Shown here piece after piece: positions 14,636 through 35,373 of a stretch of DNA of 64,000 nucleotides. The stretch comes from a virus, in the UHGV virus genome UHGV-0134778; one strand, written 5' to 3'. The position numbers and the translations under genes are program-made. Position 1 is the stretch's first letter; each line of letters starts with the position of its first letter. Under the pieces are notes generated by a model. It saw only the letters and a list, made by a program, of their open reading frames with translations. It was not told where the DNA came from and ran no database searches.

Positions 14636-14887
14636 AAAAAGGAGAGTAGGGATGGATACCGCACCTAAAACTGTTTATACTGTTCTTAAAGAGATTGCAT
14701 TCTACGCAGATCTTAGCCGGGCACCTTTATGGGAAAAGAATATGTATTTAAAATGGTGCGTGAAATTAGGGGGGCCTTCTAATGTTTCAAGCCATGTTTA
14801 TTGAAATGCTCTCTGGGGTATTACTGCTGGTAGCCATTTTAGGTGGCGCGGCGCTGATGTATAATTATCTTGAAAAAGGGGACAGTA

Positions 14888-15073
14888 ATGACAAAAAATA
14901 AATCCTTAGAACAGGCTGAAAACCTTCTCCACGAGCTGGTAAAGGAGTGGAAAGTTGAATACTCAGATTTTAATGCAAGAGAGGGGGAAGATTATTGGCC
15001 TACGGAGCGCTCAGAGGGAGAGTGGTATCAAGATTTCATAGAATGGCTATATCAGACGTGCGATGAGGGGTGA
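14888..15073 (+). CDS. hypothetical protein (track ORF 14870..15073 trimmed to ATG)
   Basis: ATG at 14888 preceded by AAAGGGGA. Confidence 0.45.
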   Translation: MTKNKSLEQAENLLHELVKEWKVEYSDFNAREGEDYWPTERSEGEWYQDFIEWLYQTCDEG

Positions 15074-15531
15074 CGATGTTTGTTAAATATGTAAAAACGT
15101 GCCTCAACAACCTTGGTAGAGAGCATTGGTACACACTGCTTGAAAAAGGAGAAATTTTAACAAAATCTGGAAAGATAACTTTGATACCTTTGGACGATAA
15201 AGACCCGTCACTACTTGTCATAGATGATTACGTTACAGGTGTGTCGTACGAGGTATCTGTGGAGAGGTTAATACGCAGATCTGGAGGTCCTTATGACCGA
15301 AGAGAGTATGTTTTCGATTCCGTTACAGAGAAGGAAGATCCGTCTCTAATGTTTAGGATGGTAATCAGGGATATGAAATCATCTATAAATAGGATCGTAA
15401 AGGACATTAAGGAGCCTTTTAGGGTAAAAGTTAAGAAGTTTTTTGATTCTAAGATCAACATACTTGCAGTTGTGCTAGGCGTAATTCAACTTCTGTTAAT
15501 TTTGCACTATTTTGAACTGTTGTTTAAGTAA
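15070..15531 (+). CDS. hypothetical protein (153 aa), hydrophobic C-terminus
   Basis: Co-oriented ORF with ATGA overlap. Confidence 0.5.
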   Translation: MTMFVKYVKTCLNNLGREHWYTLLEKGEILTKSGKITLIPLDDKDPSLLVIDDYVTGVSYEVSVERLIRRSGGPYDRREYVFDSVTEKEDPSLMFRMVIRDMKSSINRIVKDIKEPFRVKVKKFFDSKINILAVVLGVIQLLLILHYFELLFK

Positions 15532-15591
15532 TGTGCATTATGGCACAAAGGATGTGCCATAACTAAATAAACTAAGAAAGAGGTAGAGAGA

Positions 15592-15939
15592 ATGTCAAAG
15601 ATTAAATCGATATTAATGTGGGTGGCTGTTGTAGCTTTTGTAGGATACTGGACTTGGGAAACTGAATTAAAAGATATTGGGTATACCAGTCTTGAGAGTA
15701 AGGCGTGCATTGGCATAACCGATGCATTCAGGCAGAATGCTATGGATCACGAATGTGTCGATGCAGATATAGATGAGAAACTGTCTAAGGACAAAGATTT
15801 TTACCATGGTCATGCCTTGCTTGATAGTGGTGATACTGTAGAATTCTGGTCGTGGTTCCGTGAAGATGGGACAATAAAGACAGCAGTAAAGATTTCCAAC
15901 AAAGAGTTGATGCTGTTGCAGCAGAAGGAGGTGCAATGA
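15592..15939 (+). CDS. hypothetical protein with N-terminal transmembrane segment (115 aa)
   Basis: N-terminal hydrophobic helix ILMWVAVVAFVGYW; AGAGGTAGAGAG RBS. Confidence 0.5.
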   Translation: MSKIKSILMWVAVVAFVGYWTWETELKDIGYTSLESKACIGITDAFRQNAMDHECVDADIDEKLSKDKDFYHGHALLDSGDTVEFWSWFREDGTIKTAVKISNKELMLLQQKEVQ

Positions 15940-16205
15940 TCTGGATATCCTACGCTGATGGCACCATGCTGTATACTGCAGGTACTAGATATGAAGTTAA
16001 GGAGGACGATAAAAAATTTATCGTAAAAACATTTGACAAGGACGACAACCTTTTGCTAGAATTGACTTACAAGGTTGGGGATGTATCTAGCATCCAATTG
16101 GATTGCGGTCATAAAGATAACCCGCTCAAGAAACCTGGGGTAGGTAAAGCTTCAGAAGAACGCCTGTCTCGTATTGCAGAAAGCGTTTCTGCACAAAAAA
16201 TCTAA
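15936..16205 (+). CDS. hypothetical protein (89 aa)
   Basis: Overlapping start/stop with previous gene. Confidence 0.5.
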   Translation: MIWISYADGTMLYTAGTRYEVKEDDKKFIVKTFDKDDNLLLELTYKVGDVSSIQLDCGHKDNPLKKPGVGKASEERLSRIAESVSAQKI

Positions 16206-16220
16206 AAAGGGGACTAGAAA

Positions 16221-16415
16221 ATGAAAAACTTACATTTTAACACTTATTACTACAACACTTTGAATGATTTGTATTATATTGTTCGAAGTAAAAATCCTGA
16301 AACAGTCCTATTCTGCCGCGAACCTTTCAAAGGAGAGGAAGTGGAGTCTGAGATGAATGTTAGCCAGATTACCTCTTTGTTGCTCTCAGGTGCAATGGAA
16401 GAAGCAATATTCTAA
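16221..16415 (+). CDS. hypothetical protein (64 aa)
   Basis: Co-oriented packed ORF. Confidence 0.45.
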   Translation: MKNLHFNTYYYNTLNDLYYIVRSKNPETVLFCREPFKGEEVESEMNVSQITSLLLSGAMEEAIF

Positions 16416-16433
16416 ACCAGGCGGGAGGGTTTT

Positions 16434-16622
16434 ATGAAGCACTATTGTCTGTCTGGTAGGATGGGGGTGGATTGTGATTGGGTTTTCTTAAAACTTGTCA
16501 GCGTTCGAGAGTCCATCCCAGAGGAAGAGCAAGAAAGCGAGCTGATGTCATGGATCAACCATTACGGTAACACTTTTCGGCATGTTAAGGTAGAAGAGTT
16601 GCCAAGCGAGGCTGAATTATGA
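16434..16622 (+). CDS. hypothetical protein (62 aa)
   Basis: Co-oriented packed ORF. Confidence 0.45.
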   Translation: MKHYCLSGRMGVDCDWVFLKLVSVRESIPEEEQESELMSWINHYGNTFRHVKVEELPSEAEL

Positions 16623-16915
16623 AACTTTTTGAGTGGTTTAAAAAGTTTAAATATAAAGCTGTAGCCATCGTGCCGTGGTCCATTCAGTGGGTTGATGAAG
16701 GTGGTCTACCGATACCTGGTGACAAAGATACTGGGTACTGGATTATGATGGAGAACGGGTTTGGAAAGCGAAAGTATACGTGCACAAACTCTACTCGATC
16801 TGCACTTAATAGAGTGCCTGGTTACAAACTTATGGTTGTGTGGAAAATGTCAGGCGTGCCTCCAGCCAATGCTCAATTTCTTACTGACAATCCGACCACG
16901 GTAGAGGGAGATTGA
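16619..16915 (+). CDS. hypothetical protein (98 aa)
   Basis: ATGA overlap with previous gene. Confidence 0.5.
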   Translation: MKLFEWFKKFKYKAVAIVPWSIQWVDEGGLPIPGDKDTGYWIMMENGFGKRKYTCTNSTRSALNRVPGYKLMVVWKMSGVPPANAQFLTDNPTTVEGD

Positions 16916-17199
16916 TAATGAAAAAGATTAACAGTAGTGAAGTAGAGTTTAAACTTGTCGGAAAAGGCACTTACTGGGAAGTTCGTCAAAAGGTATATTT
17001 GTTCGGTCTTATTCCCTACTGGTCTAAATTCTACTGGGGAGCTAACGAGTTGGGAAGATACGCCACCAAATCAATGGCACTTATTGGTATAGCAGAGTAC
17101 ATTGCAGCCCGAGACAGGGTTGGAACCACTTATTACTACACTGCTGACGATATTCGTAACAGTGTTTACGTCCCACAACCACCTGATGGAGACCGTTGA
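16912..17199 (+). CDS. hypothetical protein (95 aa)
   Basis: ATGA overlap with previous gene. Confidence 0.5.
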   Translation: MIMKKINSSEVEFKLVGKGTYWEVRQKVYLFGLIPYWSKFYWGANELGRYATKSMALIGIAEYIAARDRVGTTYYYTADDIRNSVYVPQPPDGDR

Positions 17200-17423
17200 T
17201 GAAAGTTAAAGTTTTAGATTCAAGCTTCTATATTGGTCAGGAGCCTTTAGTAGGAAAAGTGTTTACTGCTGTCCCTAACGAAGATTACCCTGACCTTTTA
17301 AAAATAAAAGGAGCAGATCTTATTGCCGCTGGTGCATCTCAGGAATGCTTTGACAGTCAGTGGACCTATAACTTTGCCCTAGGTGAGGATGTAGAGGTAG
17401 TGGAGGACGATCATGAAGGTTAA
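17196..17423 (+). CDS. hypothetical small acidic protein, 'VEVVEE-tail' paralog
   Basis: MMKVKVLDS...GADLIAAGA...EDVEVVEDDHEG. Confidence 0.6.
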   Translation: MMKVKVLDSSFYIGQEPLVGKVFTAVPNEDYPDLLKIKGADLIAAGASQECFDSQWTYNFALGEDVEVVEDDHEG

Positions 17424-17667
17424 AATTCTTGATTCTAACGTCTACTTGGGACAATCCTTCCTGAATGGAAAGGTCGTTCCTGCGGTATACTTTGAAGGGT
17501 TGCCGTGGGATGATCCTGTGCGGCAACATCACAGTTATGTAGGCCACAACGTGGTGTTTATCTTGGGATCAGACCTGATCACCGCTGGTGCACCTGAATA
17601 TTATTTCGGGGAAGAGTCCTACTATGCCTTTGGGGTAGGGTCAGATGCAGATATTGTAGAGCTGTGA
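17413..17667 (+). CDS. hypothetical small acidic protein, 'VEVVEE-tail' paralog
   Basis: MKVKILDSNVYLGQ...SDLITAGAP...SDADIVEL. Confidence 0.6.
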   Translation: MKVKILDSNVYLGQSFLNGKVVPAVYFEGLPWDDPVRQHHSYVGHNVVFILGSDLITAGAPEYYFGEESYYAFGVGSDADIVEL

Positions 17668-17679
17668 TGGGTAACCGTT

Positions 17680-18078
17680 GTGAAAAATAAACTGTTTAAA
17701 GTTACAATGAAAATTCGCGGAGCTTGGAGCGTAAAGCAAGGGCGCATCCCAGAGTTTGAGAAAGACTTCTACGTAGTCTCCACCTCTGAAGAGGCTGCAT
17801 GCTGGCAGGCTGGATATGCCTATGCAAGAACCTGGTACGAAGGATACCAGACTGGAGGCTATGACGGAGAAATTGTCAGCAAGGGTGTGGAAGAAATTAA
17901 TGTGTTGACAAGTGAAAAAGTTTTTGTTATAGTGCATCCTGATTCTAGAGTGAAGCATTACTGGAATGCCAGAACAAAAACCTGGACACCGTTTGCAGAT
18001 TCTGCTACACCGCTTTTAAACCAGAAAGCTCTTGACTCTGCCCCAAGCTATGGGGTTGTTGAAGAAAAGATAAGCTGA
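17680..18078 (+). CDS. hypothetical protein (132 aa), paralog of 19887..20282
   Basis: Shared pattern HPxS...YW...WTP...L with 19887..20282. Confidence 0.6.
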   Translation: MKNKLFKVTMKIRGAWSVKQGRIPEFEKDFYVVSTSEEAACWQAGYAYARTWYEGYQTGGYDGEIVSKGVEEINVLTSEKVFVIVHPDSRVKHYWNARTKTWTPFADSATPLLNQKALDSAPSYGVVEEKIS

Positions 18079-18095
18079 AATAGTGGGGTACTTAC

Positions 18096-18386
18096 ATGAT
18101 GGATTTAGTTTTGGACACTGATAACACCGAATCGTTTAAAAAAGATGGTGTAATAAGCATGGACCAACCCTGCCATGCCAAGATTGACTCAAAATGGACC
18201 TACAAGTTTGACGGTGAGATCTTCGCAAATGATGAGAAGGTCGTGGATGCTGTAGCCATTTTAAACGCTTTAGGGTATGACCCTGTGAACTCATTGATCA
18301 AGGATCCTGTTGAGTTTGCAGAGTATGTTCGTAAAATGGCAGATCTTGCAGTAGATATTTTAAAAACTATCGACGACAAGCTGTAA
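18096..18386 (+). CDS. hypothetical protein (96 aa)
   Basis: Co-oriented ORF. Confidence 0.5.
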   Translation: MMDLVLDTDNTESFKKDGVISMDQPCHAKIDSKWTYKFDGEIFANDEKVVDAVAILNALGYDPVNSLIKDPVEFAEYVRKMADLAVDILKTIDDKL

Positions 18387-18392
18387 AAACTG

Positions 18393-18421
18393 TTGACACA
18401 ACACTTGATCTTTAGTATCAT
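18393..18421 (+). promoter_or_regulatory. sigma70-like promoter upstream of hpf
   Basis: TTGACA 18393-18398, 17-nt spacer, TATCAT 18416-18421; followed by stem-loop AGAGGG-TTTGGTT-CCCTCT. Confidence 0.55.
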
Positions 18422-18468
18422 TATTTTCAAAGAGGGTTTGGTTCCCTCTTCTTTAAAAGGAGCACGTT

Positions 18469-18786
18469 ATGCAGATTGAAATCACTGGCAACGTAGAGAT
18501 CACTGAAGGTATGGTGTCTTTCATTTCCCACAAAATGTCCAAACTGGAGCGTTTGCACCCATCTGCCAACTATGCACGTGTGAGTGTAAAAGTTGAAAAT
18601 GATCACCAGGAAGTTATGGCTTTTATTTTTGACAATTCTGGGAAAGAAGTTATCGCCAAAGCTAAAGGTAGCGATGCTTACGAGGCAACTGACCGTATGG
18701 TGGATGTTGCAGCACGCCAGTTGGCTAAATGCGGTGGAAAGAAAGGTAAGGGAAAAGGTAAAGTAAAGATTGACTTTTTAGATTAA
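18469..18786 (+). CDS. hpf: ribosome hibernation promoting factor / ribosome-associated inhibitor homolog (105 aa)
   Basis: Close match by eye to bacterial HPF/YfiA: MQIEITGNVEITEGM...KLERL...VSVKVEN...AKAKGSDAYEATDRMVDVAARQLAK. Confidence 0.7.
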   Translation: MQIEITGNVEITEGMVSFISHKMSKLERLHPSANYARVSVKVENDHQEVMAFIFDNSGKEVIAKAKGSDAYEATDRMVDVAARQLAKCGGKKGKGKGKVKIDFLD

Positions 18787-18795
18787 GGTGCTACA

Positions 18796-18897
18796 ATGGG
18801 CATGATTAAGAAATTAGTCCCAAATGTAGAGATTGCATGCTTTGAAATTATGTTTGCAATCGCAGTTGTAGTTAATGTGTTAGGTTACGGCTATTAA
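18796..18897 (+). CDS. small hydrophobic peptide (33 aa), below track cutoff
   Basis: AAGGTG RBS; MGMIKKLVPNVEIACFEIMFAIAVVVNVLGYGY. Confidence 0.35.
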   Translation: MGMIKKLVPNVEIACFEIMFAIAVVVNVLGYGY

Positions 18898-18924
18898 TTA
18901 TCAAATAATTGAGGAGACCTCTAA

Positions 18925-19194
18925 ATGAAAATTAAATTATTCAAAACTGAGCTGGCAGACAAAAACTGCGGACTGGTTGAAGGCATGATCGTTGAAGCAC
19001 AACCAGTTGACTACATGAAGGTGGTTCGTGATGCCCTGGGTGAAGGTTTTGATCTGATGGAGCCAGCTCTGCGAGAAGATGTCATCGAGATGGCTAAAAA
19101 GCACACACCGGAAGGTTTGGTAGTGTTTGTTGCACCAGGTAACGGGGAAGAGTTGATTGTAACTCCGGATGTGTATGAGGTTGTAGAAGAGTAA
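18925..19194 (+). CDS. hypothetical small acidic protein, 'VEVVEE-tail' paralog
   Basis: MKIKLFK...VTPDVYEVVEE. Confidence 0.6.
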   Translation: MKIKLFKTELADKNCGLVEGMIVEAQPVDYMKVVRDALGEGFDLMEPALREDVIEMAKKHTPEGLVVFVAPGNGEELIVTPDVYEVVEE

Positions 19195-19286
19195 TCCTGC
19201 TTGGGTTGGAATACTTTCCTCGACAAGAAAGGTTTATAATTATTTGTGGGAAAGGAATCCCCATCTCTTACCAGAGGTGATACTAT

Positions 19287-19550: not shown

Positions 19551-19554
19551 GAAT

Positions 19555-21299: not shown

Positions 21300-21586
21300 T
21301 GAAAGATTTGGTTAAGATCAAGATTAAAGACACCAATGGAGAACTCAGCCATTTTGGAATTAACGATGGTGACGAGCTGATCGCCCACCTGCCTACCAAG
21401 GAAGTTGTAAGCAAAGCGGTTGCCGGAGAAGAAGATGCAATGCAGGCTGCAGGTGTGGATGAAAACTATGTAGCAATGTGTATGTGCCGAGATCAGGTTG
21501 TTCTGTATAAAGCGTATCGACCAAATGGAGCACCTGAGTGGCTTGTTTTCCGACCCGAAGGATATGAAATTTTAGAGACGCTATGA
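21299..21586 (+). CDS. hypothetical protein (95 aa)
   Basis: Co-oriented packed ORF. Confidence 0.5.
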   Translation: MKDLVKIKIKDTNGELSHFGINDGDELIAHLPTKEVVSKAVAGEEDAMQAAGVDENYVAMCMCRDQVVLYKAYRPNGAPEWLVFRPEGYEILETL

Positions 21587-21675
21587 TAAATCTTGCCAAG
21601 GTTGCAACGGCACTGTTAATTATTTGCTGGATAGTGACCTTGGCACTATGTCTTGTATTTCATTAAGGGGGCTGT

Positions 21676-21939: not shown

Positions 21940-22094
21940 TAGTATAGTGACTAACAAGAGGTGAGGAATGACTGATTTTACTGAAGCTTTAATGATGGCC
22001 TTATCTGTTTTAGCGCTATCGGTGTGTTTTGGGGCGTTATTCACATCTCTGGTTAAAGTTTTACATACCATATTCTCACCCAAGGAGCACAGTA

Positions 22095-22346
22095 ATGACG
22101 AAGATTGACTTAAATGCTGGCGACCATGTTGTTGTCAAATGCATCGGGGATTATCTTGGATTCACAATCGGCAATACTTACGAGGCAGTGGTGGCGAAGG
22201 TTTATCATGATAAAGTCCTTAGCCTTGTATTTGACTGTGATGATGACGGAGATGACCGCTACGTCTGTGAGGTGCTGGCACGTGACGATAGTGAAGACCA
22301 GAAATTCCTGGTTATCGAACTGAACGGTATTTTTGTAGAACGTTAA
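22095..22346 (+). CDS. hypothetical protein (track ORF 22029..22346 trimmed)
   Basis: ATG at 22095 preceded by AAGGAG. Confidence 0.5.
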   Translation: MTKIDLNAGDHVVVKCIGDYLGFTIGNTYEAVVAKVYHDKVLSLVFDCDDDGDDRYVCEVLARDDSEDQKFLVIELNGIFVER

Positions 22347-23393: not shown

Positions 23394-23420
23394 AGGACGC
23401 TATGTGGCGTCCTTTTCTTT
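23394..23420 (+). terminator. intrinsic terminator
   Basis: AGGACGC-TATGTG-GCGTCCT hairpin followed by TTTCTTT. Confidence 0.55.
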
Positions 23421-23582
23421 ATCTGGTGCACGATTCCATACCTTAAGCAGTTAATCTCATTACAGAGCGTTTAAAGGCGGCTTACAAGCAACTCTCTATT
23501 TCGAGCGTAGCGAGAACGCACGTCCGTTTTGACCCAAATCACCATACGCTCGGATTTTAACCAAACCCTCGCGGCGTTTCTG

Positions 23583-23611
23583 TTGACACATTACCGCTCC
23601 AGTGATAATAT
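23583..23611 (+). promoter_or_regulatory. sigma70-like promoter
   Basis: TTGACA 23583-23588, 17-nt spacer, TAATAT 23606-23611. Confidence 0.5.
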
Positions 23612-23631
23612 CCACACATCATTTGGAGAAT

Positions 23632-23733
23632 ATGGGATACACAATGAAAACATTGTCAGAGGTTTTGGTGGTGATCCTGATGATCATTACGTCCATAGTG
23701 GCTGTTGCCGGAATACTCACGGGTGGAACATGA
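23632..23733 (+). CDS. small hydrophobic peptide (33 aa), below track cutoff
   Basis: GGAG RBS 4 nt upstream; MGYTMKTLSEVLVVILMIITSIVAVAGILTGGT; lies inside doubtful track ORF 23529..23942. Confidence 0.4.
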   Translation: MGYTMKTLSEVLVVILMIITSIVAVAGILTGGT

Positions 23734-24063
23734 TAAACACACATGCATCTGAAGAGACATCCAAAGGAGTGACTATATGTCCCTTGGCTGAGCCAGTGAA
23801 AGAGGAAAACTTAGATTCTGAAGATTCTCCATCTTCGCTCCAGGTAGATCCTGAGGCTGATGACCTAACGTGGGAAGACATCGTAGACATCTGGTTCTCC
23901 ATTATGCCTGAGCACGAAGAGTTCAGAGGTGGCAGACTATGAAGCACCGAGCCCACACAGGTTCCTCATGCTAAAGCATGGCCTGAAGAGGCAAACGTGC
24001 ATAATTCCTGTGCATTGGAACGTATAAAACCCTGTTCACACTCTCATTTCTAGAGGAGATTTC

Positions 24064-24279: not shown

Positions 24280-25802
24280 CACACAATTAGTTGCCCGGCT
24301 AAAGTGCTGGAAGCACCCATAACATCTTCCAACTAAATTTCCTACCAACACAGTTACTTACCCACCACACATGACTGTTTGCTTGTTTAGTGAGCAGTCA
24401 TCCCTTGACATTCTTGCCTATCTTGATAAAATTAAGTTCTTCTCTTTTCTTTTACCGAGTAATTCGGGTTTTCTGTTCTCTTCGGTTTGAAGGGGTATGG
24501 AGATACACCTGAGTGAACAGGGTGAACAACCGAACCTTTAGCTATGGCATTAGCATGGCGAAGCGGACGGGTGACGAAAGAGGGGCCGGAGGACACCAGT
24601 CACTGCCATATAGTATATGGGTGATAACCTGAAGAGTCTGAATAAGTGTTTAAGTACCAGTCAGAGGAAAAGGTGAATGGTAGCCGAAGGGGGAGGGGGG
24701 TTTCTTATATCTTTAATTTGTATACTTTATATACACTTGTAAACCAATTCAATTAGGATCTGTTTACCACACAAAGTGGATGGAGACAAATATCACCTAT
24801 TAAACTTGAATTATTTATAGAAAATACCACAACACTACTTAAGTCTTTGATTTTACACACAAATCCTACAGATACTCACCCTCCATATTTAACATACTTG
24901 TAACATATCCCATACTCTACCTGTCTGATCAATTTACCCAACTACATCCCCATATTTTTCCTGTCTGTACTACCCCTGCCCCGCCGGGAGTCCCGTCATA
25001 TCTGGCTTCCCAGCAAATATCACACCCACAAATATCATTGCCTGAAGAGGGTTTCATCCCATAATACACACCTTGCCTGAAGAGCGATTCATACACCAAC
25101 TAAATTTTTTAATTGACCCCTCCCCGCCGCCGGAGAGGTTGGCTTTTCCCACACAGGCCTGAAGAGTCAGCCAGAAATATCTGAACAGGCCCAGTTATAC
25201 CACGATTTTGACATGACCGACAGGAGTGCTACCCTGTCAGGAGCCGGTAGCGACTGGAGTGCTGCCAGGCGGACGAAATGGGAATACTTCTCATTCTTAT
25301 AACAATTCTCAAATATCGAGGCAGTGAGGCAAATTAATAGGTGAGGCCGTTCACACAGTGGCACAACATTTGCAACCTATCTTGTGGGGTGAATGAGAAT
25401 ACCTATCATTGTGAGAATAGTTATCATTACGGGCAATTTAACATAATACCCATTATGCGCACCACTGGCGATACATACAGGGATTGATAACATGGGTTAC
25501 TGTTTACGCACATAACAATTATATTTCTTACTATTTGTGCGGGATATAGTTAGCAACCAATAGATTAGATATTGACCTGCGGACTTCTGACCGTCCAGAC
25601 GTCTAAACGCCCACACAACAAGGGTTATACATACATTCCTGAATGTAAACAGGGCCGCAAAAATGCTACCATACCAGTTTGTAAATTTTTCATGCAGCAC
25701 TTGACAAAGAGGAGAAAAACTTGTCTGACACTTTTGCCACTTTTGACACTTTTACCTTTGACACAATATGACACAATAACGGCTGTTACTATTCCATATC
25801 TC

Positions 25803-25858
25803 ACTGTTTACGCATAGACTGTTTACGCCTGAATAGTTTACGCCCAAACTGTTTACAC
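25803..25858 (+). repeat. four tandem iteron-like repeats ACTGTTTACGC
   Basis: ACTGTTTACGC at 25803 and 25818, AGTTTACGC at 25835, ACTGTTTACAC at 25848; further copies near 25508 and 26322. Confidence 0.7.
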
Positions 25859-25869
25859 AGAGATGATGA

Positions 25870-26163
25870 GCCATGCCATTCGTTTGCATGAAAACAATTA
25901 ACAAGATAACAATTAACAAGTTAATAATCTTTCGCTGGCTATGCCAGGTGACTAGGTCACCCCTTCGGGCGTTTATATGACATAATATAAAAGCAGGGCA
26001 ACTATTAGAAGATCTATAGTTGCCTTGCTTGTTATGTCATGATTAACTAAATACAAGGCAACTATGATCTGAGTAATAGATTGCAGAAAAACTATCACGG
26101 GGGTGATGGTTACTGCTTTTATATTATGTCGCGACTCCGTCGCGCCATGCCATTCGTTTGCAT
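25870..26163. repeat. composite element: 20-bp direct repeats flanking 18-bp inverted repeats and GGCAACTAT hairpins
   Basis: DR GCCATGCCATTCGTTTGCAT at 25870 and 26144; IR GACATAATATAAAAGCAG (25979-25996) vs CTGCTTTTATATTATGTC (26113-26130); GGCAACTAT/ATAGTTGCC four times; palindromes GGTGACTAGGTCACC and GCGACTCCGTCGC. Confidence 0.7.
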
Positions 26164-26780
26164 AGTTGCCTTATTGTTACAGGTAAAATAATTACATTAT
26201 TAATTATTTCTTATCTTTCTCTTAGTCATCTAATGATTCCAGTCAGTATAGTAATGTACAGTAAACATTAGACGACTAAAGATTTCTCTGTTTATGATAA
26301 CTCATCGTGATAATTTCGGGCTGTTTACGAAAAATGTTGACACCTGAGCTGATTTATGTTATGCAGTCTACACGAATAATTATTTTATGCAGGTATTGAC
26401 TATTCCGTTATTCTGTGGTTGGAATAAATACTTTGCAGGCTATAGAATGGCGTGCGTACGTGAATTCTGAGATCTGGCGGCTATAGTTATACTCGATTTT
26501 TCGCGTAGAACACGCTTTAGATGCTGTGTAAGTGTATGACTTATAAAGATTTTTAGTTGTTGACAAGATATTGGAGATGTGCATCAGGTTAAAATTTGTG
26601 CAATAGCGGCATTACGTGCACTTTTGGGAGAGAAAACGGGTAAAAATGGACTTGCTACCACACAATGAAAAATTATGCAATAGTTATTTTCCATGTATAT
26701 TTGTACAGTATGTGGGATTGATGGCTAGTCAATTATTCCACTTGCCAGGTAGGGCCGTTTATGGTAGGAGAAGAGCAGAC

Positions 26781-26805
26781 AAAAAGAAAGGGGCCTAAGC
26801 CCCTT
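26781..26805 (-). terminator. intrinsic terminator ending the minus-strand block
   Basis: On minus strand AAGGGGC-TTAG-GCCCCTT hairpin followed by TCTTTTT. Confidence 0.6.
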
Positions 26806-28701: not shown

Positions 28702-28846
28702 TATTCCACCTAAAACAATGAGTTAATATATAACATTAGATCGCTGACCACCAGGACAACACTGATCAGCACATGCCTAACCATAAAGGGAAAGATCGCC
28801 AACATTGCCACCACGATCCCCATGGTAATAATTATCTTTCTCATGG

Positions 28847-29445: not shown

Positions 29446-29446
29446 C

Positions 29447-29551
29447 TTACCCGATACCGTTGGAAGACAAGATCATATTAGCCATGGTTGCAATCAGGCC
29501 AATACCCAGGGCAATAACCAGGATCACCGCATCAATTAATTTCTGTTTCAT
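29447..29551 (-). CDS. small hydrophobic peptide (34 aa), below track cutoff
   Basis: AAGAGGAAAACAAG RBS; MKQKLIDAVILVIALGIGLIATMANMILSSNGIG. Confidence 0.4.
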   Translation of the reverse strand: MKQKLIDAVILVIALGIGLIATMANMILSSNGIG

Positions 29552-30131: not shown

Positions 30132-30187
30132 GATGATTTGCCTCTCTTTATTTTCATAATTGGGGGGCCTTTTCGGCCCCGCCAGGT

Positions 30188-31017: not shown

Positions 31018-31040
31018 TGATTATTTTAACAGGGTTTAAA

Positions 31041-31085
31041 TTTACTTTATTGATGGCCCTGGAGTCAAGGCCATCTAAAAATAAA
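31041..31085 (-). repeat. 45-bp conserved intergenic repeat, copy 1 (promoter-like)
   Basis: TTTACTTTATTGATGGCCCTGGAGTCAAGGCCATCTAAAAATAAA; on minus strand contains TTGACT-N18-TAAATT and an ATGGCC/GGCCAT stem. Confidence 0.7.
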
Positions 31086-31087
31086 TT

Positions 31088-31288
31088 TTACAGATCTACA
31101 ATCTCTTTAATTCGTTTTACTGCTGCCTCAGCGCCTTGAGGGTAGAAATTATGATAACCAATCACGCGGGTAATACTGATCGCCGCTTGGTGGTCCTCGT
31201 AGTCGCCTTTGAATATTTCTTGACCATCAACCAGCACAGCAATTTTTTCTTCTTTTTTGAAGTTAATAACGCGGATATTGTTGCTCAT
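31088..31288 (-). CDS. hypothetical protein (66 aa)
   Basis: Co-oriented ORF. Confidence 0.5.
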   Translation of the reverse strand: MSNNIRVINFKKEEKIAVLVDGQEIFKGDYEDHQAAISITRVIGYHNFYPQGAEAAVKRIKEIVDL

Positions 31289-31772
31289 TTTGTTTCCCCT
31301 TTTGGAACTTTGTCTGTGTGGTGGGGAGTGTCTCCCCGTTGATTGTTATTATCCATATTCTGGACCGGATTGCAACACTCAGGAAGAAAAATTTTTTGAA
31401 AAAAGTTAGGCCCCCAGGGATCGGGGGCCGTTATCAGTTGCTTACAGCGATAAAATACATCCCTACGCCTAACAATATTTCAAGGGCGATGATCTCCAGC
31501 CATACCATAACACGGCGCGCCTTATCGGTGCGGGGCTTATCCTTGGGTGTCATCGTCTCCCTCTTTCCTCCTGTTAGTAGTGACGTGGTTTACAATGGTC
31601 CCCAGGAGTACTATCGCCACGCACATTACGAGAAAAATTATTTCTTCCGTTGTTCGGTCCATTGTTATAAAACCTCTCAAGATCAGGCCTAAAAGTAAAT
31701 CTTTCGTTATTGAATCCGTCACGCCAGGCGGCTGGCTTCAAATCTTCACTAAATGGATTAATTAACGTGGCA

Positions 31773-32144
31773 TTATTTAAACGGTTGGCCCACATATTTT
31801 CTATTCCTCTCAAATAGGCGATCCGCCTCAGTTAAACATATCTCATGGGCGTGATCTCTGGTTTTAGCTTCATCAAAAACCTGTTGTGCAAGGCTGCAAC
31901 GTAGGGAGACTGGAAGATCACTATAATAGGCGTTGACAAACGTTTGAGCGTCGTACAGGTCTGAAAATACTTTACCCTTTCTATTATTCCCCTTGTCAAC
32001 AATTGCAAGGATAACCAATACAATAGTTGCAACCACCCCCAGGAAAATAGATATAATAAACCATAAAAAGGCGGATCTTCCCATCTTGCCAGCGATCCAG
32101 GCGTTAAACAAGGCAACCAATATAGCCAAAATAATAAATTCCAT
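31773..32144 (-). CDS. hypothetical membrane protein (123 aa)
   Basis: Two hydrophobic helices at N-terminus. Confidence 0.55.
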   Translation of the reverse strand: MEFIILAILVALFNAWIAGKMGRSAFLWFIISIFLGVVATIVLVILAIVDKGNNRKGKVFSDLYDAQTFVNAYYSDLPVSLRCSLAQQVFDEAKTRDHAHEICLTEADRLFERNRKYVGQPFK

Positions 32145-32210
32145 TCTATGTACCCTCTTACAATTCTGCGTAGCAATAAGGCGGCAAATATGCCGCCGCC
32201 TGTTACCTGA

Positions 32211-32627
32211 TTAAAAATTATCGCCGTAAATCTTTCCGCTTTCTACCCATACCACCACGCGAGGCATACTATCCCACACGTCTTGTTTTAGATTGAGCGC
32301 GTGCAATTCTTCGGTGGTGCTCATACCAGGCACGGGCTGATTGTATACTGCAAAACGACCACCTGCATAATCATAGGCCAGAGTTAAATCACACTGGATC
32401 ATCTTTTTGATCATGGCGTTAAGCATAGCGTTAGCCGCATATTGGTCACGTTTTAAAGGCAACTCTTTGATTAGTTTGCGATAGTTTTCGATATGGTCGC
32501 ACACTGTTTCACGTGGAAGATCTTTCATATCTTCACGGAATGTAACCAGGTTAAACATAACGGTGTCAATAGCCTTGGTGGTGTTTTTCATGATGTTTTC
32601 CTCTTTGTTTTGTGTGGGGCAAGTCAT
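32211..32627 (-). CDS. hypothetical protein (138 aa)
   Basis: AAAGAGGAAAACATC RBS; upstream GC hairpin. Confidence 0.55.
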   Translation of the reverse strand: MTCPTQNKEENIMKNTTKAIDTVMFNLVTFREDMKDLPRETVCDHIENYRKLIKELPLKRDQYAANAMLNAMIKKMIQCDLTLAYDYAGGRFAVYNQPVPGMSTTEELHALNLKQDVWDSMPRVVVWVESGKIYGDNF

Positions 32628-32681
32628 CTCGCCCCCTTGATTTTTAATATAGCAGGTTTTTAGATTATTGCAACACTTTTC

Positions 32682-33305
32682 TTATGAAAAACTCATCTCA
32701 CCATATTCATCTACATCAAACCGCCAGTCGTTGGCCTGGATGAGGTCGATCAAGGTCTCGACTGCAAATTGTTCGTCGTAGGCATTCTCCAGATCTACGT
32801 AAACCTTGCGAGAAATTTCTCTGACCGTCTCAGTGATCAACTCTTCCAGCTCTTCAACCTTGCTTTCTTGCTTGGCGGTCAGATTCAGCCAAGTAGTATC
32901 AATGTATCCGCTTACAGTGTTTTCGTGACTATGGCGGCTATATGGATCACGCTCAACACTTGCAGATAGCTCGCCATCGTGCATTGTGCCGAACAAGTGA
33001 CGAATTGAGCGGAATTTAGTCAGAGATTTGACTTTACGCAAGAATTTTTCTAAATCAACGTTTTCAGCACTGATTGACGCGCCGTCACCCTGGCACCAAA
33101 AGCCGGACCAATGTACTTCGGTATCTTCAAGGCCATACTCTGGAAAAACATATTCTTTATAGTATTCAATCACGCTTTCTGCAAAAAAGTTATCCCCGCT
33201 GTGTTCTTCTCTTTCGCGGACCATTTCAACGGCTTTTTCTTTTTGTTCGTCGGTCAGCACGTCGAAAGATAAGTTGTAACCTGTGGTAATGTTAACGGTG
33301 GTCAT
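32682..33305 (-). CDS. hypothetical acidic protein (207 aa)
   Basis: AGGAGAAAATATC RBS; promoter and hairpin upstream. Confidence 0.6.
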   Translation of the reverse strand: MTTVNITTGYNLSFDVLTDEQKEKAVEMVREREEHSGDNFFAESVIEYYKEYVFPEYGLEDTEVHWSGFWCQGDGASISAENVDLEKFLRKVKSLTKFRSIRHLFGTMHDGELSASVERDPYSRHSHENTVSGYIDTTWLNLTAKQESKVEELEELITETVREISRKVYVDLENAYDEQFAVETLIDLIQANDWRFDVDEYGEMSFS

Positions 33306-33362
33306 GATATTTTCTCCTGTTTTCTTTATTAGTGGCGGGAAGTTTTCCCGCCTGTGTGTTTA

Positions 33363-33390
33363 ATTATACTTATTGAGATTTACTTGTCAA
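33363..33390 (-). promoter_or_regulatory. sigma70-like promoter (minus strand)
   Basis: Minus strand TTGACA (plus 33385-33390), 16-nt spacer, TATAAT (plus 33363-33368). Confidence 0.5.
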
Positions 33391-33640
33391 CACTATTTTT
33401 TAAATTATTGTGGCGTAAAATGTTCAAGATCTCTTCAACGTCATCAACACGGCGGCAATTTTTAAACGCTACCAATTGCCCCATGATTTTAATCACTGGG
33501 CGGCCTTGCCAGTGCCCCTGGAGAAAGCGCGCCTTGACTTTATCGGTGGAGCTATCACGCCACCAAATGGCCTTGTTGTTGCAGTAGTAAAAATTATTCA
33601 GGACAACATCAACCTTATCAAAATTTTTTAATTTACGCAT
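33380..33640 (-). CDS. hypothetical protein (86 aa)
   Basis: Co-oriented ORF. Confidence 0.5.
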   Translation of the reverse strand: MRKLKNFDKVDVVLNNFYYCNNKAIWWRDSSTDKVKARFLQGHWQGRPVIKIMGQLVAFKNCRRVDDVEEILNILRHNNLKNSVDK

Positions 33641-33881
33641 GGCGTTTACTCCTTTCTCTCTTTGATGTGGTTAGTATAGCTAACCTGTTTAAGATGTCAA
33701 GCTTTAAATAAAATCACTGTCAATAATATTTTTAACGCCATAAAACGGCCCTGGGCGATGTTTTCAGGTTAAGAAAGGGGATTGCATAGGTGGGGGCCTT
33801 TTTGGCGCTTATAGGGCCAACCAGGGGCGCTATTCGTAGGATAGAAATAAAAAGCCCCGCACAATGGCGGGGCGTTGGTTG

Positions 33882-34103
33882 TTATTTGTCTTTATGGCGG
33901 TATCGTTCTGCCTGTCGTTCACGTTCCAAAAGTAGGCCAGGCAATTTACGATCATAATGATTTCGCCAGATCTTTCCAAATCTTTTTGGCTTATTCAGTT
34001 TATTGTTACGCTGGCGGCGTTCCGGCAACTCTTCGGAATCATGAGGACGCTTTACAATTTTTTCGAAATTAATTTTCATAGCTTCCCCCTTTACTGATTT
34101 CAA
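33882..34103 (-). CDS. hypothetical basic protein (73 aa)
   Basis: Co-oriented ORF. Confidence 0.45.
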   Translation of the reverse strand: MKSVKGEAMKINFEKIVKRPHDSEELPERRQRNNKLNKPKRFGKIWRNHYDRKLPGLLLERERQAERYRHKDK

Positions 34104-34440
34104 TATTTGCCTGAATCGCCCGGATACGGCGTTTTATAACCTCCTGATCCGTGCAATCATATCCCCAAAAGTCTACAATTTTTGCGCCCCCAGCTTTTAA
34201 GCGGTATAGTGTTTCTTGCATCTTGTAAGCTGGGATCGGTCGTGGTGTTACCTGGTCGCCTTTCTCATCCTTGTACTTGATAATATAATCTTCATTGTCG
34301 TTGAATACCCAAAATGGGTATTCTGTAAGGGCGTTGCTCTCTTTTTCGTTTTTGGATTGGATCTTGTTTACAATTAAAGCCGTAGCAATAGCGCCAATGA
34401 TAAAACTTGCACCGCTGATCATGTTACTTTCTCCTTTCAT
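34069..34440 (-). CDS. hypothetical membrane-anchored protein (123 aa)
   Basis: N-terminal helix ISGASFIIGAIATALIV. Confidence 0.5.
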   Translation of the reverse strand: MKGESNMISGASFIIGAIATALIVNKIQSKNEKESNALTEYPFWVFNDNEDYIIKYKDEKGDQVTPRPIPAYKMQETLYRLKAGGAKIVDFWGYDCTDQEVIKRRIRAIQANIEISKGGSYEN

Positions 34441-34497
34441 GGTGTTAATAAATTATCTTTATAGATGGCCCTGCAGCCAGGACCACCGAAAAAATAA

Positions 34498-34743
34498 CTA
34501 TTTCACAATGCCTACAAAACAGATCCCGCCTTCCCCGACGTAGGCAATATCGGTCACTTTATAGTCGGTTAAGATCTGTTTATTCAGATCATTAATAAAA
34601 TCGGTCATTGCGTTGGTGTAGTTGTCTTCCATATCTAAGGCATAATCCCAGGTGTAAACCTTTTTACGTCCGAAGCCTTTTACCATGATACGGGCGCTTT
34701 TGGTGTTGGTAGGCGCATAATATTTGGTGATTAGTGCTGCCAT
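34498..34743 (-). CDS. hypothetical protein (81 aa)
   Basis: Co-oriented ORF; 45-bp repeat upstream. Confidence 0.55.
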   Translation of the reverse strand: MAALITKYYAPTNTKSARIMVKGFGRKKVYTWDYALDMEDNYTNAMTDFINDLNKQILTDYKVTDIAYVGEGGICFVGIVK

Positions 34744-34786
34744 GGTTTTAACTCCTCTGTATTAGTTCAGTGTTAACAGTGTAAAG

Positions 34787-34831
34787 TTTACTTTATTGAT
34801 GGCCCTGGAGTCAAGGCCATCTAAAAATAAA
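34787..34831 (-). repeat. 45-bp conserved intergenic repeat, copy 2
   Basis: Identical 45-mer to 31041..31085; diverged copy at about 34457..34497. Confidence 0.7.
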
Positions 34832-34832
34832 T

Positions 34833-35174
34833 TTACTCGTTTTCTTCCAGTTCTGCAAGCTCTTCTTTTGCTTCTTCCAACTCTGTCTGTAATTCCTGGT
34901 ATTCTTCATCGTCCTCAATATCCAGGCTGTCGATGTAGTCGCTAAATCCGCAGCGGTAAGCGATAGGATCTAGCTCCTTGAGGATACGCGACGGAAGAAA
35001 AGAAATGTTTCCGATCATGATTTCGCCGTAGACCTCGTCTAACCATTCATCATAGTTTTCGTCGTACTTGTCCTCGTCGATTTCAAAGTTATCGATCTTG
35101 TTCTCAAGGTCTGCGATCTGTTTTTTCAGTGCGGCAACCTGAATAGCTTTTTCTGCGGTGGTCATAGTAGTCAT
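34833..35174 (-). CDS. hypothetical acidic coiled-coil protein (113 aa)
   Basis: AAAGGAGAAAAC RBS. Confidence 0.55.
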   Translation of the reverse strand: MTTMTTAEKAIQVAALKKQIADLENKIDNFEIDEDKYDENYDEWLDEVYGEIMIGNISFLPSRILKELDPIAYRCGFSDYIDSLDIEDDEEYQELQTELEEAKEELAELEENE

Positions 35175-35225
35175 GGCGTTTTCTCCTTTTGTGTGTTCTG
35201 GGAAGTTTTCCCGTTTACGTGTTTA

Positions 35226-35253
35226 AGTATACCGATTCAGATTAGCTTGTCAA
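35226..35253 (-). promoter_or_regulatory. sigma70-like promoter (minus strand)
   Basis: Minus strand TTGACA (plus 35248-35253), 16-nt spacer, TATACT. Confidence 0.45.
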
Positions 35254-35373
35254 TTAAAAATTTAAGAAAAATTTTGCAAAACTGTTAGCGCTACTCATTA
35301 ACATTTGCGCCAGGATGTACCCGACAACGCAAACGATAATAGTTACCTTTGTGTATTGGCGTGTAGTGCTCAT
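35254..35373 (-). CDS. small hydrophobic peptide (39 aa), below track cutoff
   Basis: GGGGGG RBS; MSTTRQYTKVTIIVCVVGYILAQMLMSSANSFAKFFLNF. Confidence 0.4.
   Translation of the reverse strand: MSTTRQYTKVTIIVCVVGYILAQMLMSSANSFAKFFLNF

Follow-up and report, generated by a model that had tools for sequence, protein, structure and literature searches.

Five probable small membrane-peptide genes, putative modulators of the host envelope, in the small-gene arrays of an rV5-like Escherichia coli phage

The stretch of 64,000 nucleotides analyzed here (the window) belongs to a Vequintavirus, i.e., an rV5-like E. coli myophage, and five of its short open reading frames (ORFs), designated s1 to s5, probably represent independently evolved genes for small membrane peptides that might serve as accessory modulators of the host envelope or membrane. 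In four of them (s1, s3, s4, and s5), the substitutions bear a clear protein-coding signature, and these frames are under protein-level purifying selection. The ORFs s1 (14782..14901), s2 (18796..18897), and s3 (23632..23733) are located on the plus strand and s4 (29447..29551) and s5 (35254..35373) on the minus strand, within two convergent arrays of small and mostly orphan genes; "88 mainly small ORFs" have been reported for the corresponding region of rV5, together with sigma70-type promoters throughout the genome (PMC3606486). Each of the five occupies a gap between co-oriented genes and has a Shine-Dalgarno (SD) site and one transmembrane (TM)-competent segment, and they represent different families without paralogues among them. 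The original prediction, which gave no strands, had placed all five exactly, stop codons included.

SD strength was expressed as the energy of the anti-SD duplex, for which 45 validated long genes provided a reference median of -7.1 kcal/mol. The good SD sites that had been claimed for all five are present in s1 (-10.9 kcal/mol) and s5 (-10.7 kcal/mol), those of s3 (-6.4 kcal/mol) and s4 (-6.0 kcal/mol) are average, and that of s2 (-4.0 kcal/mol) is weak in the window. The proposal of one TM helix per peptide agrees with the apparent insertion energies of the best 19-residue segments, which range from -4.0 to +2.0 kcal/mol compared with a median of +10.3 kcal/mol for 100 non-genic ORFs (2% at ≤1.0 kcal/mol), the energies of s2 and s5 being marginal (about +2 kcal/mol), and with the single TM domain (TMD) found by TMHMM/Phobius in the rV5 orthologues of s1, s2, s4, and s5 (PMC3606486, Table S3). 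Based on charge asymmetry (positive-inside rule), an N-in/C-out topology is predicted for s2 to s5 and an N-out/C-in topology for s1. The combination of an SD energy of ≤-5 and a hydrophobic segment was found in 1/105 null ORFs (<60 aa, inside validated genes), so that finding both in five co-oriented gap ORFs is far above chance.

Synonymous and nonsynonymous (S/N) substitution patterns were evaluated in 11 to 23 related genomes and support protein coding for s1 (S33/N5, p = 2e-10), s3 (S23/N7, p = 1e-6), s4 (S47/N44 in 15 haplotypes pooled with the second allele described below, p = 5e-6), and s5 (S29/N27, p = 4e-4). The signal survives the exclusion of overlapping segments and is found in the claimed frames only, not in alternative ones. 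The view of genuine single-pass peptide genes is supported, for these four by their coding signature, while the test for s2 remained non-significant (p = 0.07 to 0.14). Conservation in related phages, which had been proposed as a check, is given for all five frames, as they are intact in more than 100 genomes, with full-length matches in 118 (s1), 118 (s2), 114 (s3), 72 (s4, plus 157 for its second allele), and 113 (s5) phage records. It is extremely improbable that s1 to s5 are functionless chance frames in AT-rich intergenic DNA. Short hydrophobic ORFs are indeed frequent (22 ORFs of <60 aa have a hydropathy peak of ≥2.0), and the coding tests of s2 and of the window-type s4 alleles alone are non-significant, but the synonymous excess of the other frames is strong and specific, each ORF is intact in 72 to 157 records, diverged alleles retain the same length, and the coincidence of SD site and TM segment is as rare as stated above.

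The five genes are already known and were hidden solely by a display cutoff of 60 codons. The claim that they had been missed by the ORF track is correct with respect to this 60-aa threshold only, because each is annotated as a CDS in at least one public relative; they are not overlooked genes either, since a PHROG family of unknown function exists for each and four are listed for rV5 as "membrane protein, 1 TMD" (ORF131, ORF145, ORF173, and ORF193; PMC3606486, Table S3, Kropinski et al. 2013). These four rV5 ORFs, Murica gp132/JES2013 gp152, and the PHROGs 15251, 15151, 34195, 14631, and 16391 (s1 to s5 in this order) are direct orthologues, with the same syntenic slots, 76 to 100% amino acid identity, and full-length HMM matches, and nothing essential differs apart from the start codon choices of s1 and s4 and the frame of s3 in rV5. 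What is novel is a frame error of rV5 ORF162 over s3, the presence of the s4 family in phi92/phAPEC8-like phages as well, and additional small TM genes.

The strongest coding signal was obtained for s1 (39 aa, MFQAMFIEMLSGVLLLVAILGGAALMYNYLEKGDSNDKK; orthologue of rV5 ORF131 and Murica gp160), in which 33 of 38 substitutions affect codon position 3. It shares 23 nt with the gene upstream and 14 nt with the one downstream (ATG at 14888), and the non-overlapping codons 9 to 35 alone yield S26/N3 (p = 8e-9). The start codon is ATG in the window and GTG in most relatives; the predicted TM segment comprises approximately residues 9 to 27 and is followed by a basic C-terminal tail. The location of s1 raises the question of whether it, and possibly other peptides of the set, takes part in lysis, be it as a partner of the holin, as an antiholin, or as a factor in lysis timing. 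Its rV5 counterpart is located two genes downstream of ORF129, the only 2-TMD protein of rV5 and annotated as "putative holin," and is followed by ORF133 and ORF134 with 1 TMD each; the genes of this cluster, which is rich in membrane proteins, overlap tightly, which suggests cotranslation. In addition, s3 shows a weak similarity to the holin model TIGR01598 (E = 0.017). However, the score of the latter (15.4 bits) is far below the curated cutoff of 39.7 bits, the holin label of ORF129 is based solely on its TM count, the rV5 endolysin (gp89) is encoded about 22 kb away, and neither s1 nor its neighbors have a lysis function in PHROGs. A lysis function is therefore unlikely.

The promoter proposed for s3 is present and conserved. 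This sigma70-like element (plus strand, 23583..23611; TTGACA-17-TAATAT with TG) is preceded by a terminator-like hairpin (23394..23413); its -35 hexamer is invariant, and its -10 hexamer reads TAGTAT in most relatives. It would serve s3 and a 70-aa gene (plus strand, 23730..23942; Murica gp131), whose full-length PHROG match is phrog_16356 of unknown function. The stop codon of s3 overlaps the ATG of this gene (ATGA), and the arrangement suggests that the two may be translationally coupled. The s3 peptide, M(GYTM)KTLSEVLVVILMIITSIVAVAGILTGGT, comprises 33 aa, or 29 aa if translation begins at an internal ATG (23644), and has the best TM score of the five (-4.0 kcal/mol). Codons 5 to 33 show S20/N4 (p = 1e-6) and codons 1 to 4 S3/N3. 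Orthologues are annotated in Murica (gp132) and JES2013 (gp152). In rV5, the sequence is covered by the frame of ORF162 (window ORF 23529..23942), for which the S9/N20 pattern and a stop (p = 0.22) indicate a wrong frame.

The strongest candidate for having a specific partner is s4 (34 aa, MKQKLIDAVILVIALGIGLIATMANMILSSNGIG; orthologue of rV5 ORF173 and Murica gp121), which is predicted to be an N-in/C-out TM peptide. The cytoplasmic half of its putative helix varies, and its C-terminal half, ATMANMILS(S/F)(N/H)GIG, is near-invariant, with changes in residues 21 to 34, i.e., the presumed periplasmic end, occurring at positions 30 and 31 only, even across two phage subfamilies. A second allele, 56% identical and exactly 34 aa long, is found at the same location, flanked by near-identical genes. 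It is present in 157 records, among them Stephanstirmvirinae, e.g., phi92 and ZCKP1; the family is shared with phi92/phAPEC8-like phages, in which it is mostly unannotated. The two alleles differ at 39/105 nucleotides, yet length, frame, and C-terminal motif are kept, and codon position 2 is the least changed; in the pooled test, alternative frames yielded p > 0.7 and 6 to 16 stops. The 46-aa start used for ORF173 in rV5 adds a 12-codon upstream extension that is not conserved. Since s4 and its neighbor are absent from some genomes, the gene is dispensable.

The same pattern of variation is that expected for a signal peptide and its mature product. Some of the peptides, s4 foremost, could accordingly be Sec-type pre-peptides rather than residents of the membrane, with the hydrophobic part being a cleaved signal sequence; in s4, cleavage at the small-x-small site T-M-A|N would free the short periplasmic peptide NMILSSNGIG. 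The n- and h-like regions of s4 vary freely, the putative c-region and the last 10 residues vary at two positions only, and small-x-small motifs are also recognizable by eye in s2 (AIA|V), s3 (AVA|G), and s5 (SSA|N). This scenario is nevertheless very unlikely, because the hydrophobic stretches of 17 to 20 residues are TM-like and not signal-like, neither a polar c-region nor a helix breaker precedes the putative cleavage sites, small-x-small motifs are common by chance within TM helices, and there is no obvious receptor or processing gene in the vicinity.

In s5 (39 aa, MSTTRQYTKVTIIVCVVGYILAQMLMSSANSFAKFFLNF; orthologue of rV5 ORF193, nom_173, and JES2013 gp180), an N-in TM segment is predicted at approximately residues 10 to 28. 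Coding support is concentrated in codons 1 to 30 (S26/N20, p = 1e-4), and codons 31 to 39 alone show no such signal (S3/N7). One base past the stop codon begins a near-consensus sigma70 promoter (minus strand, 35226..35253; TTGACA-16-TATACT, 11/12 matches) annotated in rV5 as "P192," and the last codons of s5 (KFFLNF) form its A/T-rich UP-element-like tract. Both the hexamers and the A/T tract are conserved; part of the conservation of s5 is hence unrelated to the peptide. A diverged 38-aa form is intact in a divergent IMG/VR contig.

Overlapping signals are even more prominent in s2 (33 aa, MGMIKKLVPNVEIACFEIMFAIAVVVNVLGYGY; orthologue of rV5 ORF145), which is flanked by an HPF/RaiA-like gene and the gene at 18925..19194. 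This ORF is probably a coding gene that is probably also constrained at the nucleotide level by the promoter and leader of the next gene. A sigma70-like promoter (plus strand, 18770..18797; TTGACT-16-(TGc)TACAAT, 10/12 consensus matches, extended -10) overlaps the s2 ATG with its -10 hexamer; both hexamers are invariant in relatives (-10 improved to TATAAT in a divergent contig), and the predicted transcript starts inside s2 and leads to the gene at 18925. Positions 18770 to 18924 may therefore represent a promoter and a conserved 5' leader or regulatory RNA of about 120 nt for 18925..19194, with the open frame being incidental or secondary, an explanation that we regard as a serious but rather doubtful competitor. 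Near-invariant DNA with an overlapping promoter would fit a non-peptide role equally well: the s2 body has a nucleotide diversity of 0.010 (0.7% quantile of the region), synonymous sites are also conserved in it, and the conservation extends across the spacer as far as the following start codon. The sole hypervariable stretch, codons 1 to 4, corresponds to the discriminator/+1 region of the promoter; moreover, the coding test is non-significant (S10/N8 for the whole ORF, p = 0.07), and s2 is an orphan with one 50%-identity cluster among 1.84 billion proteins. On the other hand, both the SD site (GAGGTG in relatives) and a start codon have been retained, apparently by compensation in L005, where codon 1 is ATA and codon 3 is ATG, and the few changes in codons 5 to 33 (12 in 90 nt, S7/N4) lean toward synonymous or conservative ones. 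An open TM-like frame is rare by chance (1/105), the block has no Rfam match and an unexceptional predicted RNA structure (z = -1.8), and a gene and a promoter can coexist, as exemplified by s5 and P192. The frame is intact in 118 records and 5 metagenome contigs.

With respect to function, s1 to s5 matched no functionally characterized family in Pfam, NCBIfam, PADLOC, or PHROGs, and no holin, exclusion, toxin, or defense family in particular; a role in host membrane modulation is therefore one that we only infer. Direct evidence for translation, membrane localization, or a phenotype was not found, nor was any Ribo-seq, RNA-seq, infected-cell proteomic, or functional study of vequintaviruses in the literature. 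Coding-strand promoters are numerous and conserved in the region, and host sigma70 RNA polymerase would transcribe the five genes from these many consensus-like elements of the arrays, with s3 at the head of a separate two-gene unit and s5 under a weak promoter of its own; translational coupling to neighboring genes would apply to s1 and s3. The peptides of 29 to 39 residues, approximately one hydrophobic helix with short flanks, would be integrated into the inner membrane of E. coli as single-pass helices and might modulate host envelope proteins or the membrane state during infection as accessory factors, e.g., by inhibiting or hijacking an inner-membrane protein or by excluding a superinfecting phage. 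Superinfection exclusion, lysis timing, and the inhibition of host membrane proteins are generic possibilities.

Small inner-membrane regulators that bind larger membrane proteins are established in E. coli, e.g., MgrB, AcrZ, MgtS, KdpF, and CydX. They resemble s1 to s5 in size (29 to 49 aa), the single TM helix, and the lack of any other domain, and the near-invariant helix end of s4 would fit a partner-binding surface of this kind; in contrast, the peptides studied here are phage encoded, have no known partner, and lack sequence similarity (NCBIfam). Lytic and temperate phages also have membrane proteins for superinfection exclusion or takeover that virion assembly does not require, e.g., T4 Imm and Sp, P22 SieA, and lambda SieB. 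In its dispensability in some genomes, s4 is comparable to these classic exclusion genes, but the exclusion proteins known so far are larger (about 80 to 200 aa, often with more than one TM segment) and not homologous. The lysis peptides of single-stranded RNA phages (LysM, 37 aa, targeting MurJ) and phiX174 E are tiny single-TM inhibitors of an inner-membrane enzyme and thus a proven precedent for the proposed action; they are, however, sole lysis factors of another virus class, whereas the phage studied here has a canonical endolysin, and there is no sequence similarity.

Coding support was also obtained for at least two small TM genes of the region beyond s1 to s5. The first (minus strand, 31434..31553; 39 aa, MTPKDKPRTDKARRVMVWLEIIALEILLGVGMYFIAVSN), an orthologue of rV5 ORF181 and Murica gp113 with a phrog_13629 match, is intact in all genomes and shows S30/N15 (p = 5e-7) and an SD energy of -10.3 kcal/mol. 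The second (plus strand, 21583..21666; 27 aa, MINLAKVATALLIICWIVTLALCLVFH), for which no annotation exists in the relatives inspected, overlaps the stop codon of the upstream gene (ATGA), is intact in 18/18 genomes (S25/N29, p = 1.4e-3), and has a same-length variant with about 45% identity in a divergent contig. Two weaker candidates correspond to rV5 ORF156 and ORF170, with 1 TMD each (PMC3606486, Table S3). The ORF at 21968..22108 (plus strand, 46 aa; also nom_144) is intact in all genomes, with S16/N17 (p = 0.025) and an SD energy of -7.1 kcal/mol. The weakest candidate, 28710..28844 (minus strand, 44 aa, MRKIIITMGIVVAMLAIFPFMVRHVLISVVLVVSDLMLYINSLF; also JES2013 gp160), lacks an SD signal (+0.3 kcal/mol), is intact in a fraction of 0.78 of the haplotypes (S31/N45 and 3 stops, p = 0.16), and has a best 19-residue insertion energy of -1.7 kcal/mol.

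All five short hydrophobic ORFs were found exactly where the original prediction had placed them, and the strands that it had omitted can be added: s1 (14782..14901, 39 aa), s2 (18796..18897, 33 aa) and s3 (23632..23733, 33 aa) lie on the plus strand, s4 (29447..29551, 34 aa) and s5 (35254..35373, 39 aa) on the minus strand, each in a gap between co-oriented genes. The presumed single transmembrane (TM) segment was recovered as one insertion-competent stretch per peptide, with energies of -4.0 to +2.0 kcal/mol (best 19-mer, Hessa-type sum; marginal for s2 and s5) against a median of +10.3 kcal/mol for 100 non-genic ORFs, and the rV5 orthologues of s1, s2, s4 and s5 have one transmembrane domain (TMD) by TMHMM/Phobius. 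The Shine-Dalgarno (SD) sequences had all been rated as good, which holds for s1 and s5 (anti-SD pairing energies of -10.9 and -10.7 kcal/mol) and not for s2 (-4.0); s3 (-6.4) and s4 (-6.0) are near the median of -7.1 kcal/mol of the yardstick, 45 validated long genes of the region. The promoter announced at 23583 is present (TTGACA-17-TAATAT with an extended -10) and conserved. Since a decent SD and a hydrophobic segment coincide in only 1/105 short ORFs embedded in real genes, the occurrence of five such ORFs in gaps is not due to chance. Overall, s1 to s5 are real genes for small membrane peptides, with some doubt about s2.

These genes were already known. Megablast placed the window in the genus Vequintavirus, whose rV5-like members are Escherichia coli myophages of ~136 kb, with 93 to 96% identity over 10 kb to >100 records. 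The statement that the ORFs were missed by the ORF track is correct only in terms of the 60-codon threshold of that track; all five are annotated in public relatives, with CDSs recorded at these loci for rV5, Murica, JES2013, nom, AlexBoehm and I29, and syntenic position and strand agree with the annotated CDSs of the reference genomes (for s4, the flanking genes were checked as well). GenBank has carried them from the rV5 genome onward, in which s1, s2, s4 and s5 correspond to ORF131 (39 aa), ORF145 (33 aa), ORF173 (46 aa) and ORF193 (39 aa), four genes labeled "membrane protein, 1 TMD" in 2013 (PMC3606486, Table S3), and s3 equals Murica gp132 and JES2013 gp152 (29-aa form). Each peptide matches one PHROG HMM over its full length, i.e., 15251 (s1, E = 1.4e-30), 15151 (s2, 5e-26), 34195 (s3, 1.7e-19), 14631 (s4, 4.7e-23) and 16391 (s5, 3.8e-31), and none of these families has an assigned function. 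The distinct PHROGs and the absence of any mutual similarity rule out that the five are paralogues; as far as sequence comparison tells, the small TM peptides of this region are a class and not a family. A tblastn search with s1, s2, s3 and s5 at E <= 1 returned nothing beyond Vequintavirus, and IMG/VR scans anchored on two neighboring genes yielded two and two close loci, the remainder being unrelated distant matches.

Coding was tested by the substitution pattern. The homologous region was gathered from 17 to 23 genomes, taken from public phage records, from one IMG/VR contig and from metagenome contigs, the distinct haplotypes of each ORF were joined by a minimum-spanning tree, substitutions were classed as synonymous (S) or nonsynonymous (N) in all six frames, and the synonymous fraction was compared with a mutation-matched Monte Carlo expectation. 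Conservation across related phages had been proposed as a check, and the claimed frames are indeed kept intact among the relatives. For s1, s3, s4 and s5, a synonymous excess is found in the claimed frame only and survives the removal of overlaps. In s1, 33 of 38 changes fall on codon position 3 (S33/N5, p = 2e-10), and the portion without neighbor overlap still gives p = 8e-9. The s1 stop is lost in two "UNVERIFIED" records (L023 and L024, Campylobacter phages C9 and A112b) by one extra base in a poly-A run that doubles as the start of the gene downstream; a sequencing error in this homopolymer is the probable cause. Some two dozen rV5-like genomes have been deposited as "Campylobacter phage" with C. 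jejuni as the host, a label that looks doubtful for E. coli-type vequintaviruses.

The s3 frame (S23/N7, p = 1e-6) competes with the N-terminal third of rV5 ORF162, a long overlapping frame in which the same locus shows S9/N20 and a stop; since the substitutions favor s3, its frame is the real one and the ORF162 reading of the locus is rejected. ORF162 (101 aa; NC_011041, 103372-103677; window 23529-23942, +) consists of a 70-aa gene plus an upstream extension that crosses s3 out of frame, and the rV5 reference annotation is thus probably wrong across s3. Codons 5 to 33 carry the entire s3 signal (S20/N4) and codons 1 to 4 none (S3/N3), and translation may in fact begin at the inner ATG (23644). 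The s3 stop overlaps the ATG of the 70-aa gene (ATGA), and the pair is preceded by a terminator-like hairpin and then by the conserved promoter. For s5 (S29/N27, p = 4e-4), the signal resides in codons 1 to 30 (p = 1e-4); the last nine codons show none and coincide with an A/T-rich tract directly upstream of a near-consensus promoter, the rV5 "P192" promoter, whose -35 element starts one base after the s5 stop.

The case of s2 is different. The ORF is intact in 118/118 records and in every metagenome contig (a single metagenome scan added five contigs, near-identical at s2), its SD is conserved, and the one genome with ATA at codon 1 has ATG at codon 3. The coding test remained at p = 0.07 to 0.14 because there were almost no substitutions to count: codons 5 to 33 hold 12 changes in 90 nt among 19 haplotypes (S7/N4), codons 1 to 4 hold 13 changes in 12 nt. 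The nucleotide diversity of the s2 body (0.010) corresponds to the 0.7% quantile of all 100-nt windows of the 23-kb region, far below that of the coding neighbors (~0.05), and the conservation extends up to the start codon of the next gene. The s2 ATG coincides in part with a sigma70-like promoter of the extended -10 type (TTGACT-16-TGcTACAAT, 18770-18797, +); this promoter is invariant in the relatives, and the -10 reads TATAAT in the most divergent contig. Transcription from it would begin within s2 and supply the gene that follows. On the antisense strand near s2 there are only weak promoter-like matches (9/12), the block has no Rfam match, and its RNA fold is unremarkable (z = -1.8). The peptide is an orphan, with one real cluster in 1.84 billion representative proteins in an exhaustive HMMER search. 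On these grounds, translation of s2 is probable and would draw on read-through from the operon of the HPF-like gene, and its sequence is, judged by its variation, also constrained as promoter and leader. The block may be a dual-use element in which a small ORF, a start-codon promoter and an ultraconserved leader are superimposed; if so, translation of the peptide and expression of the downstream gene would be mechanistically linked. The gene immediately upstream (18469-18786, +) encodes an HPF/RaiA-like ribosome hibernation factor, and the gene after s2 (18925-19194, +) is labeled "sigma 54 modulation factor" in some records.

The window-type alleles of s4 alone (S4/N9) left the coding test without power. 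Local tblastn without low-complexity filtering detected a second allele, which is 56% identical, exactly 34 aa long and found at the corresponding position in an IMG/VR contig, where the flanking genes are 96 to 100% identical between the allele types; its DNA differs from the window at 39/105 positions, least often at codon position 2. The second allele is present in 157 phage records, including the vequintaviruses FV3 and slur16 and the ~150-kb Stephanstirmvirinae (phi92, ZCKP1, phAPEC8-like). Pooling of 15 haplotypes resulted in S47/N44 with p = 5e-6 in the s4 frame, compared to p > 0.7 and 6 to 16 stop-creating changes in the two other frames. The 12-codon upstream extension of the rV5 start is encoded by a GC-rich hairpin and is missing in half of the alleles; the 34-aa form is therefore correct and the 46-aa start is ruled out. 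A protein homologue search with the extended 46-aa query had found vequintavirus proteins only. Some genomes lack s4 together with its downstream neighbor. The s4-type gene is unannotated in phi92 (L026, NC_023693, 772-873), between gp244 and gp245, in ZCKP1 (L030, 773-874) and in most other Stephanstirmvirinae records. Since the surrounding genes differ between phages, it moves as its own small unit.

Every s4 allele encodes 34 aa, the N-terminal helix half is freely variable, and the last 14 residues are near-invariant over Vequintavirinae and the phi92/phAPEC8-like Stephanstirmvirinae, with residues 21 to 34 always reading ATMANMILS(S/F)(N/H)GIG. A possible reading is a Sec-dependent pre-peptide (Phr/AimP-like) cleaved at TMA|N, a site that was seen by eye; the conservation pattern would fit, but the hydrophobic stretch has the length of a TM segment, unlike that of a pre-peptide. 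For a membrane-spanning s4, the near-invariant periplasmic end of the predicted helix offers the clearest hint of a specific partner. Instead of anchoring generically in the membrane, s4 may act as a specific effector; it could lock onto one host inner-membrane protein with its helix-end motif, or it could be a precursor, similar to a signal peptide, from which a periplasmic decapeptide is set free. Such an effector role of s4 and the dual use of the s2 block are both considered unlikely.

Application of the same test to all 276 ORFs of at least 25 aa revealed two extra small TM genes that the coding test supports, plus two candidates that it supports less well. The first is a 39-aa gene at 31434..31553 (-; p = 5e-7), the orthologue of rV5 ORF181. 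The second, at 21583..21666 (+; p = 1.4e-3), encodes 27 aa (MINLAKVATALLIICWIVTLALCLVFH), overlaps the upstream stop by ATGA and is followed by the gene of an 87-aa membrane protein; it is intact in 18/18 genomes, including a ~45%-identical variant of unchanged length, and carries no annotation in rV5, Murica, nom, I29 and AlexBoehm. The candidates are orthologues of rV5 ORF156 (46 aa, 21968..22108, +; p = 0.025) and, with the weakest support, of ORF170 (44 aa, 28710..28844, -; p = 0.16).

With respect to function, the suggestion of superinfection exclusion, lysis timing or inhibition of host membrane proteins stays generic. Precedents come from bacteria, with their small membrane-protein regulators, and from phages, with exclusion proteins and with single-gene lysis peptides that act as inhibitors of MurJ or MraY. 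By analogy with these systems, the best inference is that s1 to s5 would be accessory peptides that span the inner membrane once and bind or disturb proteins of the host envelope. The charges on either side of the hydrophobic segment are asymmetric, and according to the positive-inside rule, s2 to s5 are predicted to be N-in/C-out and s1 N-out/C-in. The transcription units of s1 to s5 are rich in consensus-like sigma70 promoters, and expression by the host polymerase is therefore likely; sigma70-type promoters were noted genome-wide by the rV5 authors (PMC3606486). Searches with the five peptides gave only subthreshold noise in Pfam, NCBIfam and PADLOC, no match to type I toxin families (Hok, TisB, Ldr, Ibs, etc.) in NCBIfam/Pfam, and no exclusion or antidefense family in PADLOC, Pfam or the functionally named PHROGs; none of the adjoining genes has an assigned function. 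No lysis annotation was found in Pfam or PHROG, and among the holin models only s3 scored, with 15.4 bits against TIGR01598 (cutoff, 39.7). A lysis role of s1 is possible in view of rV5 ORF129, which is encoded two genes upstream, is called a "putative holin" and is the sole protein with 2 TMDs; this label is based on the TM count alone, and s1 is not linked to a lysis cassette, the rV5 endolysin gp89 being located at 71.5 kb and ORF131 (s1) at 94.4 kb, i.e., ~22 kb away. The tight overlapping cluster around s1 (14432-15939, +) is rich in membrane proteins and includes ORF129, s1, ORF133 (151 to 153 aa, 1 TMD; virion-associated by mass spectrometry in rV5) and ORF134 (115 aa, 1 TMD); it may constitute a functional membrane module. 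The vequintavirus literature contained no transcriptome, Ribo-seq, proteomic, localization or functional study that we could find, the Murica announcement does not mention lysis or membrane genes, and the "proteomics" paper on O177 phages reports in silico work only.

The results on s1 to s5 carry little weight as a discovery and leave the current understanding unchanged, and their contribution is the evolutionary evidence that four tiny "hypothetical" ORFs are truly protein coding. By-products are the corrected s3 frame, the s4 family, which crosses subfamilies and mostly lacks annotation, the s2 locus with its overlay of promoter, leader and ORF, and the unannotated 27-aa TM gene at 21583. 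A single 34-residue family passes between two large groups of coliphages that are candidates for therapy, and in one of these groups it usually goes without annotation. Phage cocktails make wide use of rV5-like and phi92-like phages, and small membrane peptides therefore deserve attention if they possibly alter host envelope function or exclude other phages.

The five genes are distributed over two small-gene arrays, on the plus strand up to ~24.3 kb and on the minus strand from ~26.8 kb, which converge on a 2.5-kb stretch without ORFs (24300-26800) that matches the "non-coding" box of rV5. It contains a sharp GC-skew swing (24800-25200), three to four copies of iteron-like 15-nt tandem repeats (GTTTACGC plus 7 nt, 25806-25856), a perfect 18-nt inverted repeat (25979-25996/26113-26130) with a second pair nested inside (25991-26005/26016-26030), and an AT-rich block (26000-26600, GC 0.34). 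The stretch resembles a replication origin or a packaging region. Conservation in the 23-kb region is highest in two 100-nt windows, both noncoding (24430-24529 and 24570-24669; diversity, 0.006 to 0.008), which come immediately after a near-consensus promoter (TTGACA-16-TAAAAT with TG, 24405-24432, +). Positions 24405-24690 (+) are a candidate for a conserved noncoding RNA, with a predicted fold of z = -2.3 and no match in Rfam. Rfam at a permissive threshold gave zero matches at any of the small ORFs and a single weak one at 32589-32660, far under the gathering score, and a tRNA search of the window found none. The ends or starts of several public records fall near window position 25725.
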